Part shown: positions 3,357 to 64,000 of the stretch, piece after piece
Layout of the letters: each line of letters opens with the position of its first letter
How positions within the stretch are numbered: the stretch's first letter is position 1
Source of the DNA: an uncultured Candidatus Saccharibacteria bacterium
Lineage (GTDB): Bacteria > Patescibacteriota > Minisyncoccia > Phycocordibacterales > SBAW01
Assembly (NCBI GenBank): GCA_964355655.1
Contig: CAYHDT010000001.1
Span: forward strand, 21,588-85,587
DNA: 64,000 bases
Reading direction: 5' to 3'
Position numbers and translations under genes: made by a program
The notes under the pieces: generated by a model
Databases searched by the model: none
The model's input: only the letters and a program-made list of their open reading frames with translations
Told to the model about the DNA's origin: nothing

Positions 3357-5165
3357 TTATTGGGCCGCCTCCGCCTTTTTTTGGCGCAGGGCAAGGACTT
3401 GGGACGGGTCGGAAGTGATTATTTGGTCTTCGGTGTAGGAGGCTATTACTTTTATGGCAACATGCTTAAGGCCTGCGAAGAAGATTCCCTCCCCCACATC
3501 GGACTCAAGGAGCAAAAACTTCTCTTCGTCCGATAAGTTAAAAGTTTTCTGCAGATTGTCTATGGTAGTCGGCGACTGTTTAAGGAGTATCTGGATACTG
3601 GAGTTGGTAATCATCGGCAATCCGTACGGTGACTTCAAAAAGTCATCTACGTCTTGCGTGATGGTGGCAAGTCCTAAGTAGTATTTGCGGCCGCGCTTGG
3701 CCATCGAGTACAGGAAGCTCGCGGTGTCGTCCGACTTCATCATCCACCACGCCTCATCGATGACGAGTAGGCGTTTTTTAAGATTTTTGCGCACCGCGTT
3801 CCAGATGTAGTGCGTAATAAGGTACATTGCCACCGGCTTCAGGTCGTCTTCCATGTCGCGGACGGAAAAGACGACAAATTTTTTGTTTATATCGACGTTG
3901 GTCGGTTGGTTGATAAAGCCCGACCATGTGCCCTTGGTGTACTTGCTGAGGCGCTGCACCAGGGACTCCGAGCCCTGCAAGCCCGCGAGCACCAGCTCGA
4001 AGTCGGAAAGGAGCGGCGGCTCCACCTCGGCAAAGTTGCTGTCGATGGTAATGTCTTTAAGCGCGTATGTTTCGGTAATGGCGCGGTCAATAATGGCATC
4101 TTCTTCGGGTGTGAGCCCCCCGAGCATAATGCGGAACATTCCTACCAGCGCCACGATATTGGAGCGCAGAATATCGGCCGGCGACTCGTCTTCGCGCGGG
4201 ACAGCCAAGTCAAACGGGTTGATATGATTTTCCGAGTTGAGAGAAATGTTGAAGTATCGCCCGCCGACCGTTTGCGCCAAAAACTCGTACTCGCGCTCCG
4301 GGTCGATGACGATAACCTCGGTATCAAACATCAATGTGCGCAAGATTTCCAGCTTGGTGGCGTATGACTTGCCGGAACCGGACTTGGCAAAGATGACGGA
4401 GTTATAGTTCTCGAGACTGAAGCGGTCAAACAGCACCAGAGAAGCGTTGTGTCGGTTGACGCCGTAGAGTATGCCTTTGTCTGAAGTAAGGTCAAAAGAC
4501 ACGAACGGGAAGATGCTTGAAAGCGGGCTTGAGTTGAGTTTGGAGTTAACCTTCAACTCGTCGTGGCCGAGCGGGAGCACAGACTTAAAGCCCTGCTCCT
4601 GTTGGAAGAGCGCGGGTTTGACGTATACGAGGCGCGACTCCAGCATGGACTTTATTTCGCTCTCGGCTTTGTCCAACTCTTCGACCGAGGCGCCGTAGAT
4701 AGTAATGTAGACGCCGACGTCAAAAAGCTTTTCCTGCGCCTGCTGGAGCTGGTCGCGCAATGACTCCAGGTCTTGGTAGGCGGTGTCGAGTATCGGGTCG
4801 CGCACGAGGCCCTTCTCCTCCCGGGACATTATCTGGCTCTGCACCTCGGCCACCTTTTTTTGGAACTTTTTAAGTATCTCGGCGGAGTCTATCGGGTGGA
4901 TAAAGATAGAAATATCGAGCACGCGGTCGAGGTTGATGATGGGAGAGAACCACGAGTCGGTCAGGACTCTCGGGTAGGACATCACAAAAAACGTGCGCGC
5001 TATCTTGTCGCCGAGGTTTATCTCGCGGGGAGTTATTTTAAGCGCCGACGGGGCGATGACGTCCTGCAGCTCGAGTACCCCCTCTTTATATATTTGTTCG
5101 GGGAGTATAGACGCCATCGGCGCTAAGGTCTCTTTTTTTGGTTTTAGAAAATCTAAGAGTGCCAT
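3357..5165 (-). CDS. virB4: VirB4/TrbE/CagE-family type IV secretion ATPase.
   Basis: Walker A FAKSGSGKSY, Walker B LLVIDEAWWMM, 602 aa, typical VirB4 C-terminal ATPase architecture. Confidence 0.9.
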   Translation of the reverse strand: MALLDFLKPKKETLAPMASILPEQIYKEGVLELQDVIAPSALKITPREINLGDKIARTFFVMSYPRVLTDSWFSPIINLDRVLDISIFIHPIDSAEILKKFQKKVAEVQSQIMSREEKGLVRDPILDTAYQDLESLRDQLQQAQEKLFDVGVYITIYGASVEELDKAESEIKSMLESRLVYVKPALFQQEQGFKSVLPLGHDELKVNSKLNSSPLSSIFPFVSFDLTSDKGILYGVNRHNASLVLFDRFSLENYNSVIFAKSGSGKSYATKLEILRTLMFDTEVIVIDPEREYEFLAQTVGGRYFNISLNSENHINPFDLAVPREDESPADILRSNIVALVGMFRIMLGGLTPEEDAIIDRAITETYALKDITIDSNFAEVEPPLLSDFELVLAGLQGSESLVQRLSKYTKGTWSGFINQPTNVDINKKFVVFSVRDMEDDLKPVAMYLITHYIWNAVRKNLKKRLLVIDEAWWMMKSDDTASFLYSMAKRGRKYYLGLATITQDVDDFLKSPYGLPMITNSSIQILLKQSPTTIDNLQKTFNLSDEEKFLLLESDVGEGIFFAGLKHVAIKVIASYTEDQIITSDPSQVLALRQKKAEAAQ

Positions 5166-31916: not shown

Positions 31917-32684
31917 ATGCAAGAAACTGCCTCATCCCTTATAGCCTTGGGCCTCACTCCTACCGAAGCGGCCGTCTACCTTGCGGGCCTCTCCTACGAG
32001 TCGGTCACGGTCCAGGACCTGGTTCGGTCGACCAAGGTCAAGCGGCCCACTATTTACCACGCGCTCTCGCGATTGCAGGAGCGCGGGCTCGCCGCAGAAA
32101 AGCGCGTGGGCGAGCGGCTGCGCTTTTATATGTCGCCGCCCCAGAACCTCCATGTATTAGTAGAGGCGCAAAAGCAGCGGGTTGTCGCGCAGGAGAAGCT
32201 GCTCCAGGAGCTCCTGCCCTCTTTGTCCGCCCGGCAAAAGCGGGTCAAGCAAGACGGCGTAGGTGTTGTGCACTACAGTGGCATCGAGGGGATGAAGATG
32301 GTGATGGACATGGCTTTTTACTGCAAGACCAAGCGCTGGGATGTTATCGCCCCCTTTAACAACTTCCTTCGCGAGTACGACTCGGAGTATGCCAAGCAGT
32401 ACTTGCAGTCGCGCAAGTATCACGGCATCATCTCGCGCACTCTGTGGGAGAACACCAAAGATGGGAAACCCCTTTCTGAAGAAGAGAGGAGCGAGCGCAA
32501 TCCGCGGCTCATGCCCTGGGTCATGCACGGCAAGTTTAAGTCGATGATGGTACTTTTTGACGATAAGGTCGCTGTCTTTTCCCCGTATGACAAACTTTCC
32601 GCGGTGCTCATCACCAGCACAGAACTGCACGCGCTCTTCGCGTCGATGTTCGAAGGACTGTGGGAATTTTCGGAGCGATATTAA
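31917..32684 (+). CDS. TrmB-family transcriptional regulator (paralog 1 of 4).
   Basis: N-terminal wHTH LGLTPTEAAVYLAGL..VQDLVRSTKVKRPTIYHALSRLQERGL, and a C-terminal effector-binding domain. Confidence 0.75.
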   Translation: MQETASSLIALGLTPTEAAVYLAGLSYESVTVQDLVRSTKVKRPTIYHALSRLQERGLAAEKRVGERLRFYMSPPQNLHVLVEAQKQRVVAQEKLLQELLPSLSARQKRVKQDGVGVVHYSGIEGMKMVMDMAFYCKTKRWDVIAPFNNFLREYDSEYAKQYLQSRKYHGIISRTLWENTKDGKPLSEEERSERNPRLMPWVMHGKFKSMMVLFDDKVAVFSPYDKLSAVLITSTELHALFASMFEGLWEFSERY

Positions 32685-43020: not shown

Positions 43021-43824
43021 ATGAAGCTCGTCAGCTGGAACGTCAACGGCATCCGCGCGGTGGTTAAAAAGGGTACTTTTCAGTCTTTTATAAAAGACCA
43101 CAAGCCCGATGTCCTGTGCCTGCAGGAAACCAAGGCCGAGCGCGGGCAGGCCGAGATAGATTTGCCGGAGTACGAGGAGTATTGGAACAGCGCTACAAAA
43201 AAGGGCTACAGCGGCACGGCCATTTTTGTTAAAAAAGATATTACGGTGCACGAAGTGTTGATGGGCCTGCCGGAAGATCTGTGCAAAAAATACAAGCTCC
43301 ACGAAGACGGCTACGGCGACCCGAACAAAGAGGGCCGCGTGGTTGCGGTGGAACTGGACGATATATATGTAGTAACCGCTTACACACCCAATTCTAAAAA
43401 CGATCTTTCACGCCTCAAGCTCCGCCACAAACAGTGGGACCCGGCGTTTTTGGAGTATATGTTTCAGCTCGAGGAGACGAAGCCGGTGGTCTTTAGCGGC
43501 GATCTCAACGTGGCGCATACTGCCGACGACTTGGCCAACCCTAAGGCAAACGAGGGCGAGCACGGCTTTACCGCCGAGGAGCGCGAGGGTATCGACAATA
43601 TTCTAGAGGCCGGGTTTGTAGATTCCTTCCGCCGTTTTATCCCCAAGGGCAACGGCCATTACACTTACTGGACGCCGTGGCGCATGGCGCGCGAGCGCAA
43701 CGTCGGCTGGCGCATAGACTACTGGTTTGTTTCCAAAAAACTCCTCCCCCGCCTTAGGTCAGCCAAAATCCTGGCCGAAGTAATGGGCTCCGACCACTGC
43801 CCGGTGATTATTGAGTTTAAATAG
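43021..43824 (+). CDS. xth: Exodeoxyribonuclease III (Xth/APE1 family).
   Basis: MKLVSWNVNGIRA...LCLQETK...SDHCPV motifs. Confidence 0.9.
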   Translation: MKLVSWNVNGIRAVVKKGTFQSFIKDHKPDVLCLQETKAERGQAEIDLPEYEEYWNSATKKGYSGTAIFVKKDITVHEVLMGLPEDLCKKYKLHEDGYGDPNKEGRVVAVELDDIYVVTAYTPNSKNDLSRLKLRHKQWDPAFLEYMFQLEETKPVVFSGDLNVAHTADDLANPKANEGEHGFTAEEREGIDNILEAGFVDSFRRFIPKGNGHYTYWTPWRMARERNVGWRIDYWFVSKKLLPRLRSAKILAEVMGSDHCPVIIEFK

Positions 43825-43856
43825 AAATTCACGATGCCCTGTGGTATAGTCGGCAC

Positions 43857-44144
43857 ATGAAACATGCATTTAATGCTCAGTTGCAGGTGCAATTTCTCAA
43901 GCAGGGAAAGTACACTGTTGCCTACTCACCTGCCCTAGATATTTCAACTTCCGGTAAAAACCAAACGCAGGCGCGCAAGCGTTTTGCCGAGCTCGCGAAC
44001 ATCTTTATACGCGAAATAATGGAGAGGGGTACGGCACACCAGATACTCACAGAGCTGGGCTGGACTCATCGTGCCCATGCCGGTTGGGCGCCACCTAAAA
44101 TGACTAAAAGCCCCGTGTCTGTACGCATCCCTGTCGCCGCGTAA
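43857..44144 (+). CDS. HicB-like antitoxin.
   Basis: 95 aa, YTVAYSPALDISTSGKNQTQARKRFAE matches the HicB N-terminal fold pattern. Immediately upstream of hicA. Confidence 0.55.
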   Translation: MKHAFNAQLQVQFLKQGKYTVAYSPALDISTSGKNQTQARKRFAELANIFIREIMERGTAHQILTELGWTHRAHAGWAPPKMTKSPVSVRIPVAA

Positions 44145-44150
44145 TCTTTC

Positions 44151-44378
44151 ATGGCCCGTATTGGGACTATTCATTGGAAGAAGTTCGAAAAGTTTCTTCT
44201 TGCCGTGGGTTGCTCTTTTGAACGCGAGGAAGGAGACCATCGCATTTATTGGAAAGAAGGATTAAAAAGACCGATAGTGGTGCCCCGCGACACCCTCCCG
44301 CCTTTTATTGTGTTGAACAATCTGCGAACTTTGGGCGTATCGCGTGACGAGTATTTAAAAATCATCGGCAGAAAATGA
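44151..44378 (+). CDS. hicA: HicA-family mRNA interferase toxin.
   Basis: 75 aa, GDHRIY...PIVVP...IVLNNLRTLGVSRDEY motifs. Confidence 0.7.
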   Translation: MARIGTIHWKKFEKFLLAVGCSFEREEGDHRIYWKEGLKRPIVVPRDTLPPFIVLNNLRTLGVSRDEYLKIIGRK

Positions 44379-44415
44379 ACTATAGGCTCCGGCCGCTGTT
44401 TGAGTTAAAAGATTA

Positions 44416-44448
44416 AAGCCGCGCTTGGGAGCGCGGCTTGGTGTTGTC
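44416..44448 (+). terminator. Candidate terminator after hicA.
   Basis: AAGCCGCGC-UUGGGA-GCGCGGCUU hairpin, followed by a weak U-tract. Confidence 0.45.
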
Positions 44449-44696
44449 TACAGGTCTACCTCAACTATCTGCAGGTGGTCGTGCTCTCCTCTTGGCAGGC
44501 TCATTGCATCTTGAGCTTCTTTGTAAGAGTCGCCTGACCTCACCACAAACAGGTGTAGATTTTGCAGCTCGGGGACTGCCTCCGATTCTTCATCCCACGC
44601 GCCCCGAGATTGGTGGGTAATCGTCAGTTTGAGAGTAGCGGCGACGATGAGGTATTTCGTAGTCATAGTGTCCTCCCTGGTTGCGATATTCATCAC
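44448..44696 (-). CDS. Hypothetical protein.
   Basis: 82 aa ORF. Confidence 0.35.
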   Translation of the reverse strand: MMNIATREDTMTTKYLIVAATLKLTITHQSRGAWDEESEAVPELQNLHLFVVRSGDSYKEAQDAMSLPRGEHDHLQIVEVDL

Positions 44697-44792
44697 GAAC
44701 CCGAAGAATCATCATGCCGCGGCCTCTCGATGAGAATTCGAACGAATCAAATTCTCAATAGAGGGGAGAAATTTCTTTCTCCCAGTTCCCGA

Positions 44793-44987
44793 TCAGTCCA
44801 GGTCATCCTCCCAGAACTGTTCGTCGTCCCAGCGGTCCTTCTTGTCGTAAAATTCTTGGCGCTGCTCCCGAGTGTAGGCGTTGTCCTCAACGGGGACGTC
44901 GAGGTCGGTCGAGTAGTAGTACTCCGGTGTCATGTTGGCCTCCAGTTGGTTTCGATGAACTTTGACTCTCTGCGATAAGTGTAGCAC
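44793..44987 (-). CDS. Small acidic hypothetical protein.
   Basis: 64 aa, D/E/W-rich. Confidence 0.35.
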   Translation of the reverse strand: MLHLSQRVKVHRNQLEANMTPEYYYSTDLDVPVEDNAYTREQRQEFYDKKDRWDDEQFWEDDLD

Positions 44988-45000
44988 AATGAGTGAATAA

Positions 45001-45019
45001 TGTCAAGTTATATTGATGA
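45001..45019. promoter_or_regulatory. TGTCAAGTTATATTGATGA imperfect inverted repeat upstream of TrmB paralog 2, with a TATAAT box at 45031-45036.
   Basis: Shares the TGTCA-N-TGAYR pattern with the sites at 48310, 48355 and 62300. Confidence 0.4.
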
Positions 45020-45066
45020 TAAAAATTTGATATAATTGCTTTGTAAAATAAGCTTTAAATACATGT

Positions 45067-45840
45067 ATGTCAAAAATTATTGATGAAATAGGAAACAAAG
45101 CTTTGTCAGATAAGCTCCAAGAACTCGGTTTGAGCGAAAAGGAGGCTGCTGTGTACTTGGCCCTTTTGCCTCGGCAAGATACGGGTACGAGTGTACTAAT
45201 TAAGACGACGGGTCTACATGGGCAGTTTGTATATGATGCTTTGGCTAAACTGGAGGTCCTAGGTCTTGCCAAACATGTAGTCCAGGCAGGCCGGAAGAAG
45301 TTTTCGGCCAACCCACCCCAGCGCTTACTCTCGCTAATAGAAGAAAAGCGCCTTTCGGCGCAGTCGGTGGCCAAAGAGCTCCAAGCTCGCTTTGCGGGTA
45401 AGCACGAACAGAGCTTCGAAGTCCATCAGGGAGACTCGGCTTTTATTGCACATCAAATGGATCTACTGCGTCGGGCACCGCAGGGCGGCACGTTGGACGC
45501 CATTGCAACCGAGACAGAGCGGTTTCAAAAAACGTTTGAAGAGTATGGCATGTGGGACGAATACTTGCGATTGCAGGTGGAAAAGGAGATAAAGATCCGT
45601 TACTTAGGATCGGAGGCACAGCGGGGCCGTCTGCAAAAGCGTGAGCAAAGCGAACTATCCTGGACCTATAAAATCCTGCCGGGGCAGTCGACCGGCAACA
45701 TCAGTATCGAAGTGCATGCCGAGACGGTCACCTTTGTTACCTACGGCGAGCCGGTACTCTGTTTTACTCTCTCCAGCAAAGAAGTTGCACGAGGCTACCG
45801 TGAGTTTTTCAATTCTGTTTGGGCGTTGGCTAAGAAATAA
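45067..45840 (+). CDS. TrmB-family transcriptional regulator (paralog 2).
   Basis: N-terminal LGLSEKEAAVYLALL wHTH. Confidence 0.7.
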   Translation: MSKIIDEIGNKALSDKLQELGLSEKEAAVYLALLPRQDTGTSVLIKTTGLHGQFVYDALAKLEVLGLAKHVVQAGRKKFSANPPQRLLSLIEEKRLSAQSVAKELQARFAGKHEQSFEVHQGDSAFIAHQMDLLRRAPQGGTLDAIATETERFQKTFEEYGMWDEYLRLQVEKEIKIRYLGSEAQRGRLQKREQSELSWTYKILPGQSTGNISIEVHAETVTFVTYGEPVLCFTLSSKEVARGYREFFNSVWALAKK

Positions 45841-45857
45841 AAATAGAGCTGCAGTAG

Positions 45858-46160
45858 CTAATGCAGGTTCTCCGGAGATTTTTTGTAGCTCCGTATTTTG
45901 TTAAGGAGTTCTTTTGCCGCAGCCAGATTTTTTGCATCAAAAAGCGCTAGCTCATGGGAATGCGCGCTATCTTCAAAATAGTCGCTAAAATGGGTCGAGA
46001 GTCCGTCTTCATTCCACTGTTTCATCAGAGCATTGCCGGCAAGGTCCGGGTATGCTGCTTGGGCGAGCGCAATCTGCGCTCTATTTCTTATGAGCATCAT
46101 GTCCGGAGGCGGAGGCTGCCCCTGCGACTGTTCCTGCTGTACCCTCTCCATACCTGTCAT
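45858..46160 (-). CDS. Hypothetical protein.
   Basis: 100 aa. Confidence 0.4.
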   Translation of the reverse strand: MTGMERVQQEQSQGQPPPPDMMLIRNRAQIALAQAAYPDLAGNALMKQWNEDGLSTHFSDYFEDSAHSHELALFDAKNLAAAKELLNKIRSYKKSPENLH

Positions 46161-46374
46161 ATCCTAAGCATATCAAATTCCTGTGTTGCGCAAACTCGAT
46201 AAGCCAACCAGTAATGACAAGCTTAATAGAGTCCTCGAATTTACGCGTCGAGGAGCCGCGCCCTTTGCGGGAGTACTTCTTTTTGTCGCAGACCACGCGG
46301 TTTTTGTACCGAGGGTCGGCGAGCACGCGTGCCGCATCACTGCGGCGCTTCGGGGCTTGGATGGTGATTTGCAT
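46081..46374 (-). CDS. Small basic protein (MQITIQAPKRRSDAARVLADPRYKNRVVCDKKKYSRKGRG...). Weak resemblance to ArfA-type ribosome rescue factors.
   Basis: Strong RBS AGAGGAAAG 6 nt before the ATG at 46374. Overlaps a neighbouring ORF by 38 nt. Confidence 0.3.
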   Translation of the reverse strand: MQITIQAPKRRSDAARVLADPRYKNRVVCDKKKYSRKGRGSSTRKFEDSIKLVITGWLIEFAQHRNLICLGYDRYGEGTAGTVAGAASASGHDAHKK

Positions 46375-46795
46375 AATTTCTTTCCTCTGCATCGGCACAC
46401 CACGATTGATGTGTCGAAAAAAGGAGGCGACACTGGGTCGCCTCGACGAATCCTGCATGGCGGAACACCTGGGTCTTTTTGACGGACCCGTCGGGGAGTT
46501 TTTCGTCCCGCGACTCCCGAACCGAGAAGGCGTAGAGAACTTTTATTCCCCGCTCTTGCAACGCCGCCTGCAACACCGGCATAAAGAACGGGGCACCGCC
46601 GATCATTACCGAATCAAAGCCATCCTGGCGGGCCATCTGCGCGAGTGTTTGTGCATAAGCCTTGAGCCGGATTTGATCAGGCAGCTCATCGAACGTAATG
46701 AGTGCCTGTACGAGCACCTTGTCGGCAGGCTCGACGACGCCGGCAGCAATTTGGTCAGCAGTCGCTGCGTGCTGGGTCAAATTTAAAATTCGCAT
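46337..46795 (-). CDS. Hypothetical protein.
   Basis: 152 aa, no motif recognised. Confidence 0.5.
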   Translation of the reverse strand: MRILNLTQHAATADQIAAGVVEPADKVLVQALITFDELPDQIRLKAYAQTLAQMARQDGFDSVMIGGAPFFMPVLQAALQERGIKVLYAFSVRESRDEKLPDGSVKKTQVFRHAGFVEATQCRLLFSTHQSWCADAEERNYANHHPSPEAPQ

Positions 46796-46799
46796 GAAA

Positions 46800-48130
46800 G
46801 AACCCCTTGTTTCTCAATAAGCCAACGAACCATTCGCGGGCTGAGTAAAGAGGGCGAGCACGAAGGCTCGCCCGGAAGTTTGAACAATCACTGAAAGAAC
46901 AAAATTAATGGGTGGTAGCGCTAGGTCTTCGCCACCATGATGCTGTCACTCCCCGAAGCTTGTGGAGAGTCGGACCGCAGCTGTTGGGCTGCCAGCACCT
47001 TTGATCACACATCCCGATGTCGCCACCGGGTTAGAGGAATGTGTCTCCCTCTTATCCGGACTGAGCTTATTGGCTCCAGGGCTGGCCGGCCCCTTTACCA
47101 TGCGGTTGGTTGACCGCTCCCCCTTTGCACCACCAGCTTCCCAGACCGATGGATTGGGGTATGATCCGACGCTCATGTCCTTACCTCAGGTTTAACCATT
47201 CAACAGGATCTGTGCTGATCATGTGATTCTGGTTGGTACTGAGGAGGTCCCCACCACAGGCTTGCGGCCCATAGCAGTTTCCACCAACTTTCTGCCCGTA
47301 TACCGTTGGCGACGGCACACAAACTTCTGACTCCCTTTGCCCCGCCAAGGGCTCGGACCGTTGCATAGTGCAAGCCTTGCGACTCGACACCCGGGAGAAA
47401 ACCCTTTTCATCGGGCTCCGTTTAGCTTCGGTGGAGATTTGGATGCTTGCGCACCCGGCCGTAGCGGAATCAACACTACAACCTATCAACCCCTTGCGGG
47501 GGTATCTGGCTCTCCACAGCCATAACATTGGCGCCGAATGTTCGGCGGCACTGTTATGGCAATGGAGCATTTTCAAACAACTTCTCAATCAACCCACGAT
47601 CCGCCAGTAGGCAGGCTCACGAGCTGAGTAGAGGTGCGGATATAAAGGCTCCGCACTAGTGCCCTCTCACTTTGAGCGACGCCACTCGGGGCGGCGGCCG
47701 GTGGGGGTGGTAATAAGGCGCCGCTCGAAAGCGGCCTGTCCCCTATCAACACCGCACCGCTTGGGCCGTCCGTCCGCCCGGAATCCCTTTTGATGGAGGA
47801 ATTTCGTCGCGGCGTCCTCCAGGGTGTGAGACCCTGCATTCGTCCGGCTATTCATCATTTGTAACCCCCCTGGTTGTGTGATGATTGAAAGATCTAATTC
47901 TCTTTTGTTTGAAAAAGAATTGCAGGAGTGTGGGCTGCCCTGGCAACCCTTTGGAGCCCAGCTGGGGTCCGCGGCTACTCCAAGCCACACCTAGCCACGC
48001 GGCCGCGCGCTAGGATTACGATGAGGTCCTCTTTTTATGGAACCCCTCCTCCCAAGTCCTTGCGGTCTCGGGCCCCTCTCAGCCATCGTTCGTGGCTGCT
48101 TGGTACGCTTTTCTAGAGCGCCCAAGGGAG
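46800..48130. ncRNA. Long ORF-free, GC-rich region with many hairpins. Candidate structured non-coding RNA(s) or a degraded element. Its class could not be identified.
   Basis: No protein-like ORF on either strand. The tracked ORFs in this region have RNA-like R/S/P/G composition. GNRA-type hairpins are present (CCCCUUGCGGGG at 47490-47506, GCCGCUCGAAAGCGGC at 47735-47752). Confidence 0.35.
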
Positions 48131-48309
48131 GTAATGGAATCAATACGATCCCAGCCGCCCTGCCCAAATACAAACCGGCGCCCCATATGTATTGCAGGGC
48201 GGGCTGAGTAGCCTGTGGCGTATCTAGAGCAAGGCGAAGGAATCACATTCTTCGCACTTTTTCAGTATTAAACTGTCAAAGTTCGTCCCCGGGACCCCTC
48301 GCCTCCGGG

Positions 48310-48327
48310 TGTCAAACTTGATTGACA
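48310..48327. promoter_or_regulatory. TGTCAAACTTGATTGACA inverted repeat, an operator-like site.
   Basis: Perfect TGTCAA/TTGACA arms. One of three such sites in 48270-48380. Confidence 0.45.
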
Positions 48328-48354
48328 AAGCCATTATAGTCAGTTCTTTAAATT

Positions 48355-48372
48355 TGTCAAGCGGTTTTGACA
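48355..48372. promoter_or_regulatory. TGTCAAGCGGTTTTGACA inverted repeat, an operator-like site.
   Basis: TGTCA-N8-TGACA. Confidence 0.45.
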
Positions 48373-48757
48373 GATTGAAAACTTACATACAGAAAATAGC
48401 CTTAAATATAGCCATTTTTTACATATTGATATTCAATCGAGTATGACATAAAAATAGTGTTGATAGCCAGCTGCTTGACTTTATGTGCTGACTATAGTAA
48501 CCTAATTAGCGACCGGGGTGGTACTCATCCTGGCCCGGGTTTTCTGCCCAGCCCGCAGTCAATTGGGCTTGTACCTCGGCCGGCAAAGTGCCGGTTAGAC
48601 TCAGGAGCTACTTATGAAGAAGCTCAAACTGTTCGGTGACGGCTGGTAAGCCTTTAGTCGGACAATGTGGAATCGATCTCAGCGTCTGAAGTTTCGTCGC
48701 TGTAGGTTGATATCTCGAAAAGCAGAAGCGCACCGCAGTCAAAAGGTGCAAGACGTC

Positions 48758-48806
48758 GGGCGGTTGCAAGGTTCAAACCTCTGCAACCGCCCTACTTGTT
48801 TTTATG
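48758..48806. terminator. Rho-independent terminator, shared with the convergent TrmB gene.
   Basis: GGGCGGUUGCA...UGCAACCGCCC hairpin followed by UUGUUUUUA on the plus strand. The stop of the minus-strand TrmB gene abuts it. Confidence 0.6.
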
Positions 48807-49548
48807 CCTCAGCTATTTCCCAAAGCGTATTAAATATGGCTCTAAAGCTGTCTGCGATTTCTTTGCTGTCTATGATGATGCCGAATACCGGTCCTTTGAG
48901 TGCCATAACGGCGACGCAGTTTCTATAAACAAAAATGTCGGAACTCATGGGCATGCGGTCGGGTGATATATATCTGCGCTCGGTGTTTGGCGGTATCTCG
49001 GAACCCGACTTGCCTCCCTGGCGTGTATAGATGTAGCGCGAGTGGATTCCGTTCCTAACTCTTTTATCAGAAAAATCGTCCAGTTCCTTTTGTGTGTATA
49101 TGGTTGCCAAGGAGTCCCGAGAGAACAAAATAAATATTTCCTCCCCTTTTTTTAAGGTTAAAACCTCTTCGCGCATAGCGGTAATTCCTTCTTTGCCGCT
49201 AAAGAACCTCACCAGCGGTCGCTCGCCGGCGCCTTCGAACTTTTTGAGCAGCTCAGGCAGAAAGTCGTTGAGTTCAAGCTCCTTGGCCTCGAACTCTTTT
49301 TTCTTTAGTTCAAAAATACGCTTCAGATATTCAGGAGATTCTGGGGCAAAGTATGTTTTCTTACCCTCTTCGTAGGTGCTCATGAGACCCTTCTTCATCA
49401 AGCTTTCCAGTTGCACATAGGCGGTTGAGCGCACTATTTTTGCTTGCTTAGCTAGCTGGTCGGCCGTGGCGCGCCCTATTTCCAGAGCGGCAATGTAAAT
49501 TTTGGCCTCTTTTTCCGACAGCCCAACATCCTGGAGCTCTTTTAGCAT
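48802..49548 (-). CDS. TrmB-family transcriptional regulator (paralog 3).
   Basis: Start reassigned to MLKELQDVGLSEKEAKIYIAALEIG (ATG at 49548). The palindrome GTACATTGTAC lies at 49552-49562. Confidence 0.7.
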   Translation of the reverse strand: MLKELQDVGLSEKEAKIYIAALEIGRATADQLAKQAKIVRSTAYVQLESLMKKGLMSTYEEGKKTYFAPESPEYLKRIFELKKKEFEAKELELNDFLPELLKKFEGAGERPLVRFFSGKEGITAMREEVLTLKKGEEIFILFSRDSLATIYTQKELDDFSDKRVRNGIHSRYIYTRQGGKSGSEIPPNTERRYISPDRMPMSSDIFVYRNCVAVMALKGPVFGIIIDSKEIADSFRAIFNTLWEIAEA

Positions 49549-49904
49549 GAGTACATTGTACGGCACAAAACCAAATTTTGGGTACGAATAACCCCCGCAA
49601 TGGAGGTGGCGGGGGTTTGTGTGTAAGCCTTCAGAACCGGCTTTCAAGAGTTAGGATTGCCTCTTGTTTTCAATTTATTGTCGAAGTTTGTCGGTAATCC
49701 GCAATATCTCGACAGTGAGTTTAGAAGGTTACACATTGGTGCAGCTGCAATGCACAGAAAGAACATTTTTGTTATGTCGTTCGCGACAGGGTAGAACGCG
49801 CTCGCACAACATTGGTCTGAAGTAACTATACTCCCATCAAGGACAGTGTAAAGGACATAGGTGGGGATAACCTGCCTCTGCCGGCAAGGCGGGCTGTCCT
49901 TTAG

Positions 49905-52460: not shown

Positions 52461-52521
52461 TATGTAACGTTTTACGTGAACCATGTGAACGCGAAATGAG
52501 TGAACGGGAACCATGTGAACG
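52461..52521 (+). repeat. Five tandem copies of (T)GTGAAC(G) immediately upstream of yraN.
   Basis: tatGTAACG, acGTGAACc, atGTGAACG, gaGTGAACG, atGTGAACG within 61 nt. The run ends 7 nt before the ATG at 52528. Confidence 0.6.
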
Positions 52522-52527
52522 AGAATC

Positions 52528-52908
52528 ATGCCTAGTCCAAAGCGCAAAATAGGAGATATCGGGGAGGAGGTTGTGTGTAAATACCTAGAAAGAAAGGGAT
52601 TTCGGGTATTGGAGCGTAATTACCTTAGAAAATGGGGCGAAATAGATATTGTTGCCGAAAAGGGCCCATTGCTTAGTTTTATCGAGGTAAAGAGCGTTAC
52701 ACGTGAAAATGGTTCACGTGCAACATATAGGCCGGAAGAGAACGTGCACCCGGCAAAGCTTAAAAGGCTGCACCGGGCTATACAGACCTACTTATTGGAC
52801 CGAAGGGTACCGGAAGACAGGCCGTGGCAGGTGGATGTGGCTTGTGTTTACTTGGATTTTTCGACCAGAAAGGCTAGAGTAGAGGTATTGGAGAATGTAA
52901 TTCTCTAA
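52528..52908 (+). CDS. yraN: YraN (UPF0102) family endonuclease.
   Basis: IGDIGEEVVCKYLERKGFRVLERNYL..GEIDIVAEKGPLLSFIEVKS signature. Confidence 0.8.
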   Translation: MPSPKRKIGDIGEEVVCKYLERKGFRVLERNYLRKWGEIDIVAEKGPLLSFIEVKSVTRENGSRATYRPEENVHPAKLKRLHRAIQTYLLDRRVPEDRPWQVDVACVYLDFSTRKARVEVLENVIL

Positions 52909-59777: not shown

Positions 59778-61307
59778 TTACCGCGCAAATTCGATCGCGC
59801 GGGTTTCGCGGAAGACGATAACCTTTATTTCGCCGGGATATTTAAGCTCATTTTCTATGCGCAGCGCTATTTCGCGCGCTACTTCGCGGGCCTGGAAGTC
59901 GGTCATCTTGTCGGGTCTGACAAAGACCCGCACCTCGCGGCCGGCGCTTATGGCGTAGGACTTTTCGACGCCCTCAAACGAGTTGGCGATAGCCTCGATG
60001 TCAGAGAGGCGTTTGATGTACTGCTCGACAGAGTCGCGCCGCGCGCCTGGGCGGCCACCCGAAATAGCGTCGGCCACTTGGACAATGTAGGACTCCGGTG
60101 TTTCATACGGGTATTCTTCGTGGTGGGCCTGCATGGCTTTTATTACCTCCTCTTGTACTCCGAATTTTTGGAGGATGCGGCGGCCTATCTCGACATGCGT
60201 CCCTTGTACCTCGTGGTCGAGCGCCTTGCCGATGTCATGCAGGAGCGCGCCGGCGCGTGCAACAGCCGGGTTGGCGCCGACCTCCTCGGCTATCATGCCC
60301 GCGATGTGCGCCATCTCCACCGAGTGCTGCAGCACGGACTGCCCGTAGCTGGTGCGGAAGTGGAGTCTGCCGAGTATCATAAGCAGTCGCGGGTCGAGGT
60401 TAAGCACGCCCACCTCAAAAGCCGCGGCCTCGGCCTTTTCTTTAATAATTTTGTTTACGTCCGCTTTGGCCTTCTCCACCGTTTCTTCAATTTTTGCCGG
60501 CTGGATGCGTCCGTCGATAATCAGGTTTTCAAGAGCGACGCGGGCAATGGCGCGGCGCAGCGGGTCGTATGAAGAAAAGAGTATAGAGCCCAGCGTGTCG
60601 TCGATAATAACCTCTACCCCCGTTTCACGCTCAAACGCTTTGATGTTGCGGCCCTCTTTGCCGATAATCTTACCCTTAAGGTCATCGTTGGGGATAGTAA
60701 TAGCGGTCGCCATGGTGTCGGAGGCTACCGAGTTGCCGAGGCGGTGTATGGCGGTAACGAGGATATCTTTAGCTTTGCGGTCGAGTCGGTCCATGCCATC
60801 GCGCTCGAGCTTGGTGACACGCATCATCATATCTTCGCTGTTTTCGCGCTCGAGCTCCGCATAAAGTTGCTCCTTGGCCTGCTCTTTAGAGAGCCCGGCG
60901 ACTTTTGCCAGCTCGGTGGCGCGCTCCTCTAGCAATGCTTCGGCGCGCTCTTTTATTTGGCGGACTTCCTCTATTTTTCCTTTGACCGCCTGGACTTCCG
61001 AGTCGAGTTCTCCCTGCTTTTTGTCCAGCGACTCCTCACGCTTAAAGACGCGCTCTTCCTGGCGCGTTACTTTCTCTTCTTTTTCGGCAATCGTGGTCTC
61101 GAGCGCGGAAAGGACCTCGGCGGCCTTGTTCTGCGCCTCTCCGGTTATTTTTTTAGCTTCTTCTCTGGCGTCAAGCAAGATGTGCTTGACTTCGACTTCT
61201 ATCGAACCTTTACGCGATAAAACGAGCAGCCATCGGAATACAAATCCTATTACCGCACCCCCGAGCGCGGAGAGCGCCAGCAGGGCAAACACTATTTTTA
61301 ATGACAT
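59778..61307 (-). CDS. rny: Ribonuclease Y.
   Basis: N-terminal TM, coiled-coil, KH domain, HD domain (HDIGK). Confidence 0.9.
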   Translation of the reverse strand: MSLKIVFALLALSALGGAVIGFVFRWLLVLSRKGSIEVEVKHILLDAREEAKKITGEAQNKAAEVLSALETTIAEKEEKVTRQEERVFKREESLDKKQGELDSEVQAVKGKIEEVRQIKERAEALLEERATELAKVAGLSKEQAKEQLYAELERENSEDMMMRVTKLERDGMDRLDRKAKDILVTAIHRLGNSVASDTMATAITIPNDDLKGKIIGKEGRNIKAFERETGVEVIIDDTLGSILFSSYDPLRRAIARVALENLIIDGRIQPAKIEETVEKAKADVNKIIKEKAEAAAFEVGVLNLDPRLLMILGRLHFRTSYGQSVLQHSVEMAHIAGMIAEEVGANPAVARAGALLHDIGKALDHEVQGTHVEIGRRILQKFGVQEEVIKAMQAHHEEYPYETPESYIVQVADAISGGRPGARRDSVEQYIKRLSDIEAIANSFEGVEKSYAISAGREVRVFVRPDKMTDFQAREVAREIALRIENELKYPGEIKVIVFRETRAIEFAR

Positions 61308-61492
61308 ATTGGGATTTCATGAAATATATATTGAGAACGCCCTTACAATACCAGACAAATTACTTAACCGCAAATTGGCTCGTACGGAGAAAAAGTAGGT
61401 TTTCGGGAGTGTTTCGCAGGCTGACGAGCCGAGAATCAGCAAATTTCCAGCAGGAAATTATGCGACTCCCGAAGGCCTAGCTTTTTCGGAGA

Positions 61493-61560
61493 TTTATTTC
61501 TTAGCCGGGACGGCTTGGTGGGTCAAAATGTCGTCCACAATGCCGTACTTTTTAGCCTAT
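61493..61560. repeat. Direct repeat copy A: a duplicated clpP 3' end (last about 20 codons plus stop).
   Basis: 66 of 68 nt identical to 63692..63759. Copy A still encodes ...[20 protein letters not shown] on the minus strand. Confidence 0.8.
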
Positions 61561-62295
61561 TTCCGGCCCCAACCTTTCCCAAAGTTGTTGCCACACCACG
61601 CGCATAGTGTCGGCCAGATGCCGGTTTTCTACCAAGACGGCAAAAGGGGACGGACCCTCCAGGTCAATAAGGGCAACCTTGTCACCATAGATATTTATAT
61701 CGGTTTTGAACTTGGGCGCGGTAATAAACTTGGTTTTACGCAAAAATTTTAGATTGTCTTTTGAAAAGTTGCGCGCAAAGGGTACATCTCGAGAGATGGA
61801 GCGGATAAGTATGTCGCGCCGCGCGCGCTCCTTTGGGAACCAATCAAAAATCCTAGGCGGCAACTCCGCCCGCAGGTCTTCCAAATCTTCATACGCCAGT
61901 ATCTCCTTTTTTTCTCGCAACATGTCCGCGTACACCTCCTCGACCCCCTGCATTCCGTCATAAAAAGTGACGCGAGGTTTTTTTGCGGATTTGTTATTGA
62001 TTGCGAGCAAGTCCGGCAGTATGCGCTCAAGCCCGCTGAGGCGGACTTTTTGCATCTCAACCAACCGCTCTGGATTGACCGCGCTGTAGACGTGCCGCTT
62101 GCCGCGCTTGGTTTCGTTGATATATCCGCGCTCGCGTAGCTCATCAATGAAAGTATAGATAGTGGAGCGGTTAACCCCGGACTTGCCGGCAAGAGCAAGC
62201 ATGGTCGCCTCGCCGAGCTCTAATGCCGCCAAATAAACTTTGGCCTGCATCGAGGTCATGCCGAGCAAAGGGAGCAAATTCTCGTCTATTTCCAC
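61552..62295 (-). CDS. TrmB-family transcriptional regulator (paralog 4).
   Basis: N-terminal LPLLGMTSMQAKVYLAALELG wHTH. GTG start at 62295. Confidence 0.7.
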   Translation of the reverse strand: MEIDENLLPLLGMTSMQAKVYLAALELGEATMLALAGKSGVNRSTIYTFIDELRERGYINETKRGKRHVYSAVNPERLVEMQKVRLSGLERILPDLLAINNKSAKKPRVTFYDGMQGVEEVYADMLREKKEILAYEDLEDLRAELPPRIFDWFPKERARRDILIRSISRDVPFARNFSKDNLKFLRKTKFITAPKFKTDINIYGDKVALIDLEGPSPFAVLVENRHLADTMRVVWQQLWERLGPEIG

Positions 62296-62299
62296 AATA

Positions 62300-62315
62300 T
62301 GTCAATTTTATGACA
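62300..62315. promoter_or_regulatory. TGTCAATTTTATGACA perfect inverted repeat immediately upstream of TrmB paralog 4.
   Basis: TGTCA-N6-TGACA, 5 nt upstream of the start codon. Confidence 0.5.
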
Positions 62316-63262
62316 CTTATTATATCTTTGCAATAGGCCAGTTTTTCCCACTTCCATAAGCTTTTACAGAGATTATGTTTGACTTTTACTCTTATAATGT
62401 TATAATCATGACAGTTAAAAGTTCATCAAAAACAGATTGGGTACTGGCGGCTCCCTTTGTTTTGCCGAACATCGGCAGAAGAGAGGGGGTCGTCATAACA
62501 CGAGCATATACCGATCGGGCAACCGATGTGCTTATCGAGCGTAGGTAGTTCCTGCGTACGACTCCATGGGCCCCTTGAAAAACGGGGGATGAGCCAGCTT
62601 GGTTGGCTACCGCGCTGAAAGAGGCGGTTAAGTAGAAACACGGAAGTGTGTAATAGATAGGAAGAGTGGAAGGTTGTGAGAGAAGACCCAGCAGGGAAGC
62701 CTGCTGGCAATTAGCAACCGAACTCGGGTAAGTTGTACCACGTCTAGCTTCTGTGTGACGAAAAGGAGGCACACTCTCTCGGTGAGCGTGACCTCTAACT
62801 AGAAAGTTTTCCGGTCGTCAGAGGGTCCTAAATCGAACGCATCGAAACTCTTCTAGGTTTTGATGTAGTAGGGAATCCCGAGTACTTCGCAATTTCATCC
62901 CAAGTCAGTTGAAGCTGATGTTGTGGTGCGATGGAGCAAACTGCGCGAAGCAAACGACGTACTAGCCAATACCCTGGAGTGGGCCCAGGTGGCCATAATT
63001 GGTTGGCCAAGGCAATCCGACGACAGCGGTACCAGCCGTCTATCGGATGACGATGCGACCAAAAGGCTTTAGGGCTTGTTTGGTTGAAATACATAAGGGA
63101 GAAGTGACGTGTCGATCGCTGCTTCTCCCAACCAATATTGTTCTTTTTAGTTAGCTATAGATTTATAGGCGGAAACGAAAGCTTCCGCCCTCTACTGAGA
63201 ACCCGATTCATTCGGATTCTCATCGAGAAAGTTCGTTGATACAAATGAGGAGAGGGTAAGCC
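62316..63262. ncRNA. ORF-free region of about 950 nt with extensive potential secondary structure. Candidate structured ncRNA or intron-like element. Its class could not be identified.
   Basis: No ORF of 60 aa or more on the plus strand. The minus-strand ORFs are not protein-like. Hairpins are present, e.g. GGCGGAAACGAAAGCUUCCGCC at 63169-63190. Confidence 0.3.
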
Positions 63263-63655
63263 ATGCCGCCTGAATCGAAGCAAATACTCTGCCTCCTCAT
63301 ATTCGGTCCCATTCTCGCATTTGGGATTGCATACGGTAGCGAACGCTACAACGAGTCGAGATGGAGCGAACAAGACTTGGTGTATATCCAAAAAATGCGC
63401 CAGGAGTATGCCTACGGAGATATTCCTGACGGGACTCTGCTTGTCCGCCGGGATGGAAGCATCTTTATGGTGCCGCACGGTCCGTATCATCGCTACATCG
63501 TTCTTGTGGCACCTGGCCAGACTCGTCGCATGGCATACCTGTTCGGTGGCGGTGGTCAGGACGACAATATGTACAACATCCTGCGACTCATCCGACCAGG
63601 CGAACTAGACTATAACGAGTACGCCGCCAAGTTTCTGCAACAGACGCTAGATTAG
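63263..63655 (+). CDS. Hypothetical protein.
   Basis: 130 aa, RBS GAGGAGAGGG before the ATG, followed by a terminator. Confidence 0.5.
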   Translation: MPPESKQILCLLIFGPILAFGIAYGSERYNESRWSEQDLVYIQKMRQEYAYGDIPDGTLLVRRDGSIFMVPHGPYHRYIVLVAPGQTRRMAYLFGGGGQDDNMYNILRLIRPGELDYNEYAAKFLQQTLD

Positions 63656-63660
63656 CCAAG

Positions 63661-63697
63661 GAAGCCCCGGATTTTTCCGGGGCTTCTCTTTTATTTC
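63661..63697. terminator. Rho-independent terminator, bidirectional (clpP and the small gene).
   Basis: GAAGCCCCGG-AUUUUU-CCGGGGCUUC followed by UCUUUUAUUU. Confidence 0.75.
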
Positions 63698-64000
63698 TTA
63701 GCCGGGACGGCTTGGTGGGTCAAAATGTCGTCGACAATGCCGTACTTCTTAGCCTCGTCCGCCATCATAAAGTAGTCGCGGTCAACGTCCTTCTCTATCT
63801 TCTCGAGCGGTTGGCCCGTGGCTTTGGAGAGTATTTTGTTAAGCCGCTCGCGGGTGGCGACGATATGCTTGGCCGTAATTTCGATGTCGGTGGCCTGACC
63901 CTGCGCCCCGCCCCATGGCTGATGGATCATCACCTCGGCGTTCGGCAGAGCAAAGCGCTTGCCCTTTTGGCCCGCCGCCAAAATAACCGCCGCCGCGGAG
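63691..64000 (-). CDS. clpP: ATP-dependent Clp protease proteolytic subunit. C-terminal part only, as the gene continues beyond the window end.
   Basis: ...[23 protein letters not shown]...[21 protein letters not shown], a ClpP signature around the catalytic His. Confidence 0.85.

Follow-up and report, generated by a model that had tools for sequence, protein, structure and literature searches.

The window analysed here is a stretch of 64,000 nucleotides (64 kb) from an uncultured bacterium of the candidate phyla radiation (CPR)/Patescibacteria, a groundwater organism whose nearest genomes are metagenome-assembled genomes (MAGs) of Candidatus Kaiserbacteria. Close to its right end lies a region of about 950 nt without protein-like open reading frames (ORFs), located at 62316-63262 between a gene for a TrmB-family regulator, here termed TrmB3, and an ORF of 130 codons, ORF130. 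From left to right, the gene order reads HU, a 139-aa ORF and RNase Y (59778-61307), all on the minus strand, followed by the TrmB gene (-), the ORF-free region, ORF130 (+) and clpP (-, from 63691). Proteins encoded in this part of the window have identical copies only on contigs from the Hainich groundwater well H52 (0.1-µm filter fraction), and five Hainich contigs are identical except for a run of Ns. A preliminary description, made from the sequence alone, had proposed that the region specifies a TrmB-regulated non-coding RNA (ncRNA). We analysed the coding potential, promoter and operator sequences, predicted structure and relatives of the region, and the coordinates of all features are collected in Table 1.

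Between the start of TrmB3 (62295) and ORF130 (63263), each frame of ~328 codons contains 7-19 stop codons, and all three stop codons are present in every frame. Because of the latter, reassignment of a stop codon does not open an ORF, and a gene masked by a recoded stop codon was ruled out. The region is, as initially described, ORF-free in any frame or genetic code. A third-order frame-specific Markov model, trained on 41 long ORFs of the window, gave coding scores of -3 to -14 across 62241-63320, compared to medians of +10.8 inside and +1.4 outside long genes. The score was positive and frame-consistent over the TrmB gene and the central part of ORF130. The core of the region, ~750 purine-rich nucleotides, scored lower in coding potential than ordinary intergenic DNA. 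A 46-codon ORF that had been pointed out at 62408-62545 does exist, but its ATG begins 2 nt past the -10 hexamer of the promoter described below, it lacks a Shine-Dalgarno sequence, and the coding model scores it near zero or negative. We do not regard it as a gene.

No Pfam match at E ≤ 1 was found for any of the six frames of the core, and six-frame segments of at least 35 aa, used as a concatenated query against 5.8 billion protein clusters, gave no match at E ≤ 10. When every ORF of 23 related loci, including the cupin genes of loci L032 and L008, was compared with the core by tblastn, only chance-level matches were obtained, with a best value of E = 0.4 for the cupin genes. A decayed protein gene, which had been named as the alternative to an RNA, was thus not detectable by Pfam, protein-cluster or tblastn searches. 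With no residual protein similarity in any frame, uniformly negative coding scores and stop codons of all types everywhere, a pseudogene was rejected.

The region is headed by a near-consensus sigma-70 promoter on the plus strand, in the following called the cargo promoter, with its -10 hexamer at 62401-62406. Sites matching TTGACA-N16-18-TATAAT with at most one mismatch occur four times in the window (0.53 expected). One of these heads the region described here, and another, which is perfect, heads a further long ORF-free region at 46.8-48.3 kb. No canonical terminator was found between the cargo promoter and ORF130, and the only strong intrinsic terminator follows directly after ORF130. From these elements we infer transcription of the region on the plus strand.

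The presence of a TrmB gene next to the region was confirmed. Its product carries an N-terminal winged-helix domain that matches PF01978 with 52.3 bits (cut-off 25.6), and residues 90-247, the C-terminal part in which an effector-binding (sugar-binding) domain would be expected, have no Pfam match. Orthologues with 47-75% identity occur in Kaiserbacteria and other Patescibacteria. The window contains four TrmB paralogues (31917-32684, 45067-45840, 48802-49647 and TrmB3), a marked expansion for a small genome; the three that were aligned share 18-30% identity. A perfect TGTCA-N6-TGACA palindrome (O1) is present at the start of TrmB3, as the preliminary description had it, and a second, operator-like site (O2) lies over the cargo promoter. 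Sites of this type with at most one mismatch occur three times in the window compared to 0.89 expected, and two of the three are O1 and O2, 98 nt apart. TrmB3 orthologues have a palindrome like O1 at the same position in L008 and L016; in L014 and L024 the palindrome is looser. Given one TrmB-type palindrome beside the TrmB start codon and another that covers the -10 box and the predicted start of the cargo promoter, it is reasonable to assume that TrmB3 would repress both divergent promoters via O1 and O2.

The strong local complementarity noted initially was recovered in folding calculations, where stability exceeded that of shuffled sequences and of the genomic background, with a bias to the plus strand, though unevenly along the region. 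The minimum free energy (MFE) of the 760-nt core corresponds to z = -5.36 on the plus and -4.33 on the minus strand. Eighteen background windows of 760 nt gave a mean z of -1.38 (sd 1.7, minimum -3.59), and the core folds better than all 18 of them. On the plus strand the MFE is -280.6 kcal/mol with 34 G·U pairs, on the minus strand -231.9 kcal/mol with 16, a difference of 49 kcal/mol in favour of the plus strand. Windows of 150 nt, for which the baseline across the whole window has a mean z of -0.43 and a 5th percentile of about -2.8, gave z = -4.6 (+) versus 0.0 (-) at 62401-62550 and z between -2.5 and -3.5 at 63001-63300 (63151-63300: -3.45). The predicted structure comprises a long 5' stem-loop rich in G·U pairs and a 3' domain closed by a long-range helix. 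A second long-range helix, predicted from the single sequence between 62773-62780 and 63250-63257, would cover the Shine-Dalgarno sequence of ORF130. The 5' stem-loop and the long-range helices, as modelled, are consistent with a role in cis.

The last ~75 nt of the region form a two-hairpin motif, to which a hairpin quoted in the preliminary description (GGCGGAAACGAAAGCUUCCGCC) belongs. A blastn comparison of the region with the window gave a 41-nt match at 44725-44765 (-), with a GC hairpin preceding it and a small ORF following it. This second copy of the motif (44784-44724, -) adjoins another TrmB paralogue. Scanning of JGI metagenome contigs with the pattern CTCTAYTGAGAA-N11-19-TTCTCATCGAG retrieved six loci (L025-L030), and nhmmer added a diverged second copy in L025 (L025b). 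Altogether, nine copies were found, two in the window and seven in L025-L030, in addition to a diverged copy in L032. Each of the nine is in sense orientation to a small ORF that follows at a distance of 27-55 nt, and the copies belong to TrmB-type cassettes of Kaiserbacteria-like contigs.

The consensus consists of a covarying Shine-Dalgarno-like/anti-Shine-Dalgarno-like hairpin, followed by CUCUAYUGAGAA...UUCUCAUCGAG and then AGUUCUUUC. Hairpin 1 comprises 7-9 bp with a purine-rich 5' arm resembling a Shine-Dalgarno sequence (GGAGG, GGGAG or GGCGG) and a pyrimidine-rich 3' arm. Its sequence varies among the copies, yet it pairs in all of them, with CG, GC or AT at stem position 3 and GC, AT or GT at position 4. 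These pairs were tabulated by script, since MAFFT could not place hairpin 1 in register. In hairpin 2, the base is invariant (CUC-UAY-UGAGAA...UUCUCA-UC-GAG), whereas the top is variable and covaries. Of the cells of hairpin 2 in alignment A4, 97.1% are paired, and two pairs are changed on both sides, whereby the outer stem was fixed by the search pattern and the unbiased samples are L025b and L032 only. Both of these keep the outer stem through changes. Hairpin 2 is followed by the AGUUCUUUC-like tail and then by a ribosome-binding site, with the start codon 27-55 nt further on.

The ORFs behind the motif encode unrelated small proteins, among them a receiver-domain-like protein and single-helix peptides, and no Rfam model for the motif was found by cmscan at E ≤ 10. 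We interpret the motif as a probable generic translational control or processing element of TrmB cassettes, and the Shine-Dalgarno/anti-Shine-Dalgarno character of hairpin 1 suggests that it may control ribosome access. An integron attC site was considered and rejected, as the motif bases CTCTAYTGAGAA/TTCTCATCGAG do not fit the R''/R' sequences RYYYAAC...GTTRRRY and most copies have no integrase beside them. In several loci, a second conserved stretch, GTACTCGCAAGAGGCAGTAGG (a CUC-GCAA-GAG mini-hairpin), was observed ~60 nt upstream of the two-hairpin motif. Copies lie in L025 (~600-620, -), L026 (~3540-3560, with a second at ~3950-4030), L028 (535-554) and L014 (~5330-5300, -). The core contains CCCGAGTACTTCGCAA at 62877-62892, a 15/16 match to the GTACTCGCAAGAGGCAGTAGG-type stretch of L014, which may be a remnant or chance.

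Table 1 Features of the ORF-free region and its surroundings. Positions refer to the 64-kb window unless a locus (L) is named.
Feature	Position	Strand	Remarks
Left 66-nt repeat copy	61493-61558		Orphan; repeats the final 21 codons and the stop of clpP
TrmB3, TrmB-family regulator, 247 aa	61552-62295	-	Pfam PF01978, E = 5.2e-14
Palindrome O1, TGTCAATTTTATGACA	62300-62315		Operator-like, perfect TGTCA-N6-TGACA; 5 nt from TrmB start codon
Near-consensus sigma-70 promoter (cargo promoter)	62379-62406	+	TTGACT-16-TATAAT, extended -10 TG; 11/12 consensus positions; predicted start ~62413
Operator-like site O2, TGTTATAATCATGACA	62398-62413		One mismatch; overlaps -10 box and predicted start of cargo promoter
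ORF-free core, ~750 nt	62413-63167	+	Purine-rich on plus strand; no homologue found
Long 5' stem-loop, 14 + 9 bp	62445-62495	+	Predicted; rich in G·U; ~30 nt from predicted start
3' domain	62795-63154	+	Prediction only; closed by 12-bp long-range helix (62795-62806 with 63143-63154)
Two-hairpin motif	63168-63240	+	Last ~75 nt of region; not in Rfam
Hairpin 1, GGCGGAAACGAAAGCTTCCGCC	63168-63189	+	Shine-Dalgarno-like 5' arm, anti-Shine-Dalgarno-like 3' arm
Hairpin 2, CTCTACTGAGAA...TTCTCATCGAGA	63190-63228	+	Followed by AGTTCGTT tail
ORF130, 130 aa	63263-63655	+	N-terminal hydrophobic helix; Shine-Dalgarno GAGGAGAGGG at 63245-63254
Intrinsic terminator	63660-63687	+	12-bp stem, then T-rich tail; directly after ORF130; only strong one
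Right 66-nt repeat copy	63690-63755		Functional clpP 3' end (- strand), last 21 codons and stop
Motif copies, L025	545-476, 93-20	-
Motif copy, L026	3612-3681
Motif copy, L027	215-145	-
Motif copy, L028	10-64
Motif copy, L029	2200-2267
Motif copy, L030	4352-4412
Motif copy, L032	~2575-2660		Diverged
ORF130 homologue P0122	L031 5001-5441
ORF130 homologue P0123	L032 2673-2969

An exhaustive phmmer search with ORF130 retrieved two remote homologues (E = 2.5e-5 and 4.6e-4); the two proteins are labelled P0122 and P0123. The P0123 gene lies in a cassette in L032 that is headed by a TrmB3 orthologue and consists of the TrmB gene (247 aa), a 154-aa cupin-like ORF, here called ORF-X, a spacer, P0123 and RuvC. 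The spacer of 184 nt holds the diverged copy of the motif. Because P0123 occupies the equivalent place in an orthologous TrmB cassette, the motif and ORF130 represent the ancestral 3' half of the cassette. The ORF-X slot, taken by the cupin gene in the orthologous cassette, is filled in the window by the ~750 non-coding nucleotides. The ORF130 family is very small and comprises membrane-anchored or secreted proteins that share a C-terminal YNEYAAKFLQQ-like motif; the gene of one member is part of an alphaproteobacteria-like island, where it neighbours genes for a methyltransferase and an integrase. A single-sequence AlphaFold2 model of ORF130 had a pLDDT of 38 and was unusable.

A common layout recurs in L026, L027, L029, L032 and a window cassette at 44.4-45.9 kb: a TrmB-like gene, an ORF-X divergent from it, the motif and finally a small ORF-Y. 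The ORF-X proteins (45-270 aa) are mutually unrelated, and the slot is hypervariable among relatives. TrmB3 orthologues (≤75% identity) are usually found in the interval from ruvC to yebC, accompanied by a variable small gene. A long ORF-free stretch beside a TrmB3 orthologue was not found in any of L008-L015, L016-L024 and L032-L036, where the slot always holds protein genes. In L026 and in L029, whose RNase Y and HU are 92% identical to those of the window, a TrmB cassette lies upstream of the exonuclease III gene, where the window has none. The TrmB cassette layout seems to mark a hot spot at which gene content varies among closely related Kaiserbacteria.

The ORF-free region is part of a 2197-bp insertion at the 3' end of clpP, flanked on both sides by direct repeats of 66 nt that are 64/66 identical (97%) and spaced by 2197 nt. 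The left copy lies where the clpP end would fall after removal of the 2197 nt between the repeats, and it provides the final two codons and the stop of the TrmB gene. Both mismatches between the copies are synonymous third-position changes in the clpP frame (AAG/AAA, Lys; GTC/GTG, Val). Because of this, we consider that the incoming DNA, or the orphan copy, may have come with a clpP end from a slightly different allele. The uninterrupted site is found in the Kaiserbacteria MAG L008, a distant relative of the window (62-73% amino-acid identity), in which RNase Y and clpP are adjacent and ~190 nt apart; the distance from RNase Y to the left repeat in the window is 185 nt, matching this spacer. 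No gene for an integrase/recombinase, relaxase or Rep protein was found inside the 2.2-kb insert, whose only ORFs are the TrmB gene and ORF130. Either site-specific integration or a Campbell-type insertion, in which a 2.2-kb circle enters by a single crossover, would fit the pattern. The TrmB gene is 69% identical to that of L008. Because it is about as diverged as core genes, the insertion probably represents a relocated resident cassette and not a newly arrived foreign element.

Searches for relatives of the core were negative throughout. Rfam 15 (cmscan, gathering thresholds) identified four tRNAs in the window and none of its families in the region, and at E ≤ 10 over 61300-64000 it returned only chance matches, on the terminator hairpin and to HgcG at 62357-62425 (E = 3.3). 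This covers GOLLD, ROOL, OLE, HEARO, group I/II introns, riboswitches, 6S, tmRNA and RNase P, and a tRNA or tmRNA in the region was rejected. No match to the core was obtained by blastn against phage and plasmid records, by nhmmer against ~250 kb of related loci and the rest of the window, or for two 20-mers scanned against IMG/VR viral contigs. The core contains no iterons, no tandem or internal repeats and no AT-rich unwinding element; repeat arrays (CRISPR, TIGR or ToxI-like) were rejected, as it lacks tandem or interspaced repeats. A literature search for CPR/Patescibacteria together with TrmB or structured ncRNA returned nothing relevant.

The preliminary description had compared the region with the other ORF-free region, seeing the same arrangement at 46.8-48.8 kb. 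This held with regard to the consensus promoter and the TGTCA/TGACA palindromes, which are present there too. It did not hold in other respects, since the palindromes there have N8 spacing, the RNA would lie on the minus strand, the TrmB gene is not divergent and blastn detected no sequence similarity between the two regions. The further argument that two instances point to a functional module was not supported, as the regions are not homologous and define no RNA family. The other region (46800-48320, -) has a perfect TTGACA-16-TATAAT promoter (-35 box at 48360-48355) flanked by two TGTCA-N8-TGACA palindromes (48310-48327 and 48355-48372), and its 760-nt halves have z-scores of -4.8 and -5.1. 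It contains YTACTCAGCYCG three times (~48212, 47630 and 46850) and ends, right before a 152-aa ORF, with CTTATTGAGAAACAAGGGGTTCTTTCATG, which resembles the motif.

This other region belongs to a 5.9-kb island (43824-49815) between the genes for exonuclease III and the CCA-adding enzyme, where 248 nt are found in the close relative L029. Besides the ORF-free region of 1.5 kb, the island holds several small orphan ORFs and two of the TrmB paralogues. Between the promoter of the latter and the TrmB2 gene, a candidate small RNA of ~290 nt (48510-48805, +) ends in a hairpin and a T-run (48750-48800 onward); it has no Rfam or ARAGORN match. A weak Rfam match to 'Transposase-2 RNA' at 48048-48113 (-) (22.4 bits versus a gathering threshold of 42.7, E = 0.14) is probably due to chance. 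Elsewhere in the window, three tandem 15-nt units (ACGTGAACCATGTGAACGCGAA-like) lie at 52474-52525, with tRNA-Gly on one side and a 126-aa ORF on the other; an inverted partner is located at 52697-52724.

Taken together, we favour, with a probability of roughly 45%, the reading that the region is the non-coding 5' part (leader) of a TrmB-repressed cargo transcript that includes ORF130. The cassette of 2197 bp consists of TrmB3, the divergent promoter, the ORF-free stretch, the two-hairpin element, ORF130 and the terminator, inserted into the 3' end of clpP with duplication of 66 nt. TrmB3 would bind O1 next to its own start codon as well as O2, which covers the -10 box and the predicted start of the cargo promoter, and would thereby hold both promoters low until release. 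After derepression, transcription would proceed from ~62413 over ~1.27 kb to the terminator. The first ~750 nt would form a structured, purine-rich leader in place of the ORF-X protein gene (a cupin in relatives), and the long stem-loop at its beginning would be expected to stabilise the RNA. The two-hairpin element, located 16 nt before the Shine-Dalgarno sequence of ORF130, would most likely set the translation efficiency of ORF130. Of this reading, the lack of coding capacity, the promoter and operator sequences, the insertion with its repeats, the conservation of the motif and the orthology of ORF130 are shown by the sequences themselves. Of the initially proposed TrmB-regulated ncRNA, this reading retains the non-coding character, the strong promoter, the TrmB palindromes and a structure beyond background with plus-strand bias. 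It does not retain a free-standing RNA. Because the region ends in a conserved cis element, directly followed by the ribosome-binding site of a real small gene, the RNA would at least in part be an mRNA leader. In orthologous cassettes, the same slot carries ordinary protein genes.

Several observations weigh against the leader reading. O1 lies 64 nt upstream of the -35 box, O2 carries a mismatch, and the spacing of the palindrome is N7 in the orthologues versus N6 in the window cassette. The middle of the core (62701-63000) has z-scores near zero and no significant local structure. A leader of 750 nt would be unusually long for a gene of 130 codons, and its presumed effect on ORF130 is purely inferred. 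All available contigs of the organism are identical, which leaves no population variation to analyse. Since the core has no relative in any collection searched, neither conservation nor covariation can be shown for its ~750 nt, nor can selection on its sequence or structure.

Among the alternatives, the one we weigh most heavily, while considering it unlikely, is that the core is functionless filler that was left or acquired when the ancestral ORF-X was lost, and is perhaps transcribed merely because of its position. The core is unique to one population, its slot is hypervariable in relatives, its central 300 nt give no local structure signal, and a z-score near -5 is only ~2.3 sd off the background mean of this genome. 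However, 750 neutral nucleotides would be unexpected in a reduced CPR genome and within a cassette that retains promoter, operators, motif, ORF130 and terminator in intact form between repeats of 97% identity, and composition and the G·U-dependent strand bias point to a property at the RNA level. Another alternative is a free-standing large structured ncRNA as the cargo of the cassette, possibly processed from the ORF130 mRNA, with the 46.8-48.3 kb region as a second, unrelated example. In this case, it would be meaningful that two of the four near-consensus promoters in the window head the two long ORF-free regions, that both regions reach 760-nt z-scores of about -5, beyond 18/18 background windows, that the core has a coding potential below that of ordinary intergenic DNA and folds in favour of one strand, and that each region is part of a variable island and adjoins a TrmB paralogue with TGTCA/TGACA palindromes. 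Such an RNA would nevertheless have no defined 3' end ahead of the motif and no counterpart in orthologous cassettes, which carry proteins in the slot; the lack of an Rfam match at E ≤ 10 and of homologues in related loci, phage and plasmid records and viral contigs, as well as the dissimilarity of the two regions, further argues against it, and we regard it as improbable. A functional ncRNA in the core is plausible but unproven, and is suggested only by promoter strength, composition and thermodynamics; the only part with comparative support is the short, probably cis-regulatory motif before the small gene.

Two further explanations have very little probability. The position of the region equals that of ORF-X in orthologous cassettes, which together with stop-free runs of 141 and 108 codons on the minus strand would fit a decayed protein gene, such as a cupin-like ORF-X or an integrase. 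An antisense strand rich in pyrimidines would, however, be expected to show stop-free runs of this kind, all plus frames have at least as many stops as expected at random, and the strongly negative coding score and the unsuccessful six-frame, Pfam and tblastn searches speak against such an origin. Equally remote is a function at the DNA level, e.g., as a replication origin, single-strand origin or recombination site of the 2.2-kb element. Cis sites might be expected in an element that is flanked by direct repeats and has no recombinase or Rep gene, and hairpins could form in single-stranded DNA as well. Against this stand the lack of iterons, tandem repeats and an AT-rich unwinding element, the origin of the strand bias in G·U wobble pairs, which favour RNA, and the occurrence of the motif in chromosomal cassettes without flanking repeats.

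The components of the cassette resemble known systems to different degrees. TrmB3 shares with TrmB-family regulators (PF01978) the N-terminal helix-turn-helix domain and the palindrome at its own start with a second one over a divergent promoter, a position that is kept in orthologues. Classical archaeal TrmB proteins are sugar-sensing regulators of sugar transport and metabolism, whereas the cargo here consists of hypervariable small ORFs or a long non-coding stretch. Like the large 'ornate' ncRNAs (GOLLD, ROOL, OLE, raiA and HEARO), the core falls in a size class of 0.6-0.8 kb, is non-coding, has extensive predicted structure and lies in variable or mobile DNA. It differs from them in having no Rfam match or family of homologues and in being joined to a downstream mRNA without a terminator in between.

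The two-hairpin motif is placed directly upstream of ribosome-binding sites, as are 5' untranslated region elements that sequester the Shine-Dalgarno sequence (translational riboswitches, RNA thermometers and protein-binding leaders), and it combines a covarying Shine-Dalgarno/anti-Shine-Dalgarno-like hairpin with a second hairpin, whose invariant sequence could serve as a binding site for a factor. In contrast to a metabolite riboswitch regulon, the genes behind the motif are mutually unrelated, and the motif is not in Rfam. With integron cassettes it has in common that a short imperfect palindrome lies between small, unrelated ORFs on the same strand, and one ORF in L025 is flanked by it on both sides; it differs from attC sites by the absence of an R''/R' match and of a nearby integron integrase, and by a U·G wobble pattern that favours sense-strand RNA. 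The insertion itself resembles integrative elements that target 3' ends of genes, or Campbell-type insertions, in its 66-nt clpP-end repeats, the intact target gene, the uninterrupted junction in a relative and the synonymous repeat differences expected if the element brought a foreign clpP end. It differs in its size of 2.2 kb without integrase, relaxase or Rep and in a TrmB divergence that equals that of core genes.

Genomes of CPR/Patescibacteria are tiny, and because of this it is unlikely that 0.75-1.5 kb of non-coding DNA behind consensus promoters are tolerated without reason. To our knowledge, almost nothing is known about regulatory RNAs in these bacteria, and no large ncRNA has been described in the lineage. 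If the core is a functional RNA, it would add a candidate large ncRNA to a lineage without described ones; if it is filler, the finding is ordinary. It is rather doubtful that Kaiserbacteria-type CPR bacteria relocate TrmB-controlled cassettes with highly expressed structured ncRNAs of 0.75-1.5 kb as cargo, of which the two regions of the window would be the first, unrelated members. The cargo of variable islands often acts in cell-cell or host-symbiont interaction or in defence, and such ncRNA cargo, if real, might do likewise. Regardless of the nature of the core, the analysis reveals a recurring layout, in which a TrmB-like repressor gene is accompanied by a strong promoter divergent from it, and this promoter is followed by a variable first gene, the two-hairpin element and a variable small gene. 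It further provides a new conserved RNA motif that is open to modelling and searching, and a clean example of a 2.2-kb cassette that was probably relocated into the 3' end of clpP with a duplication of 66 nt.

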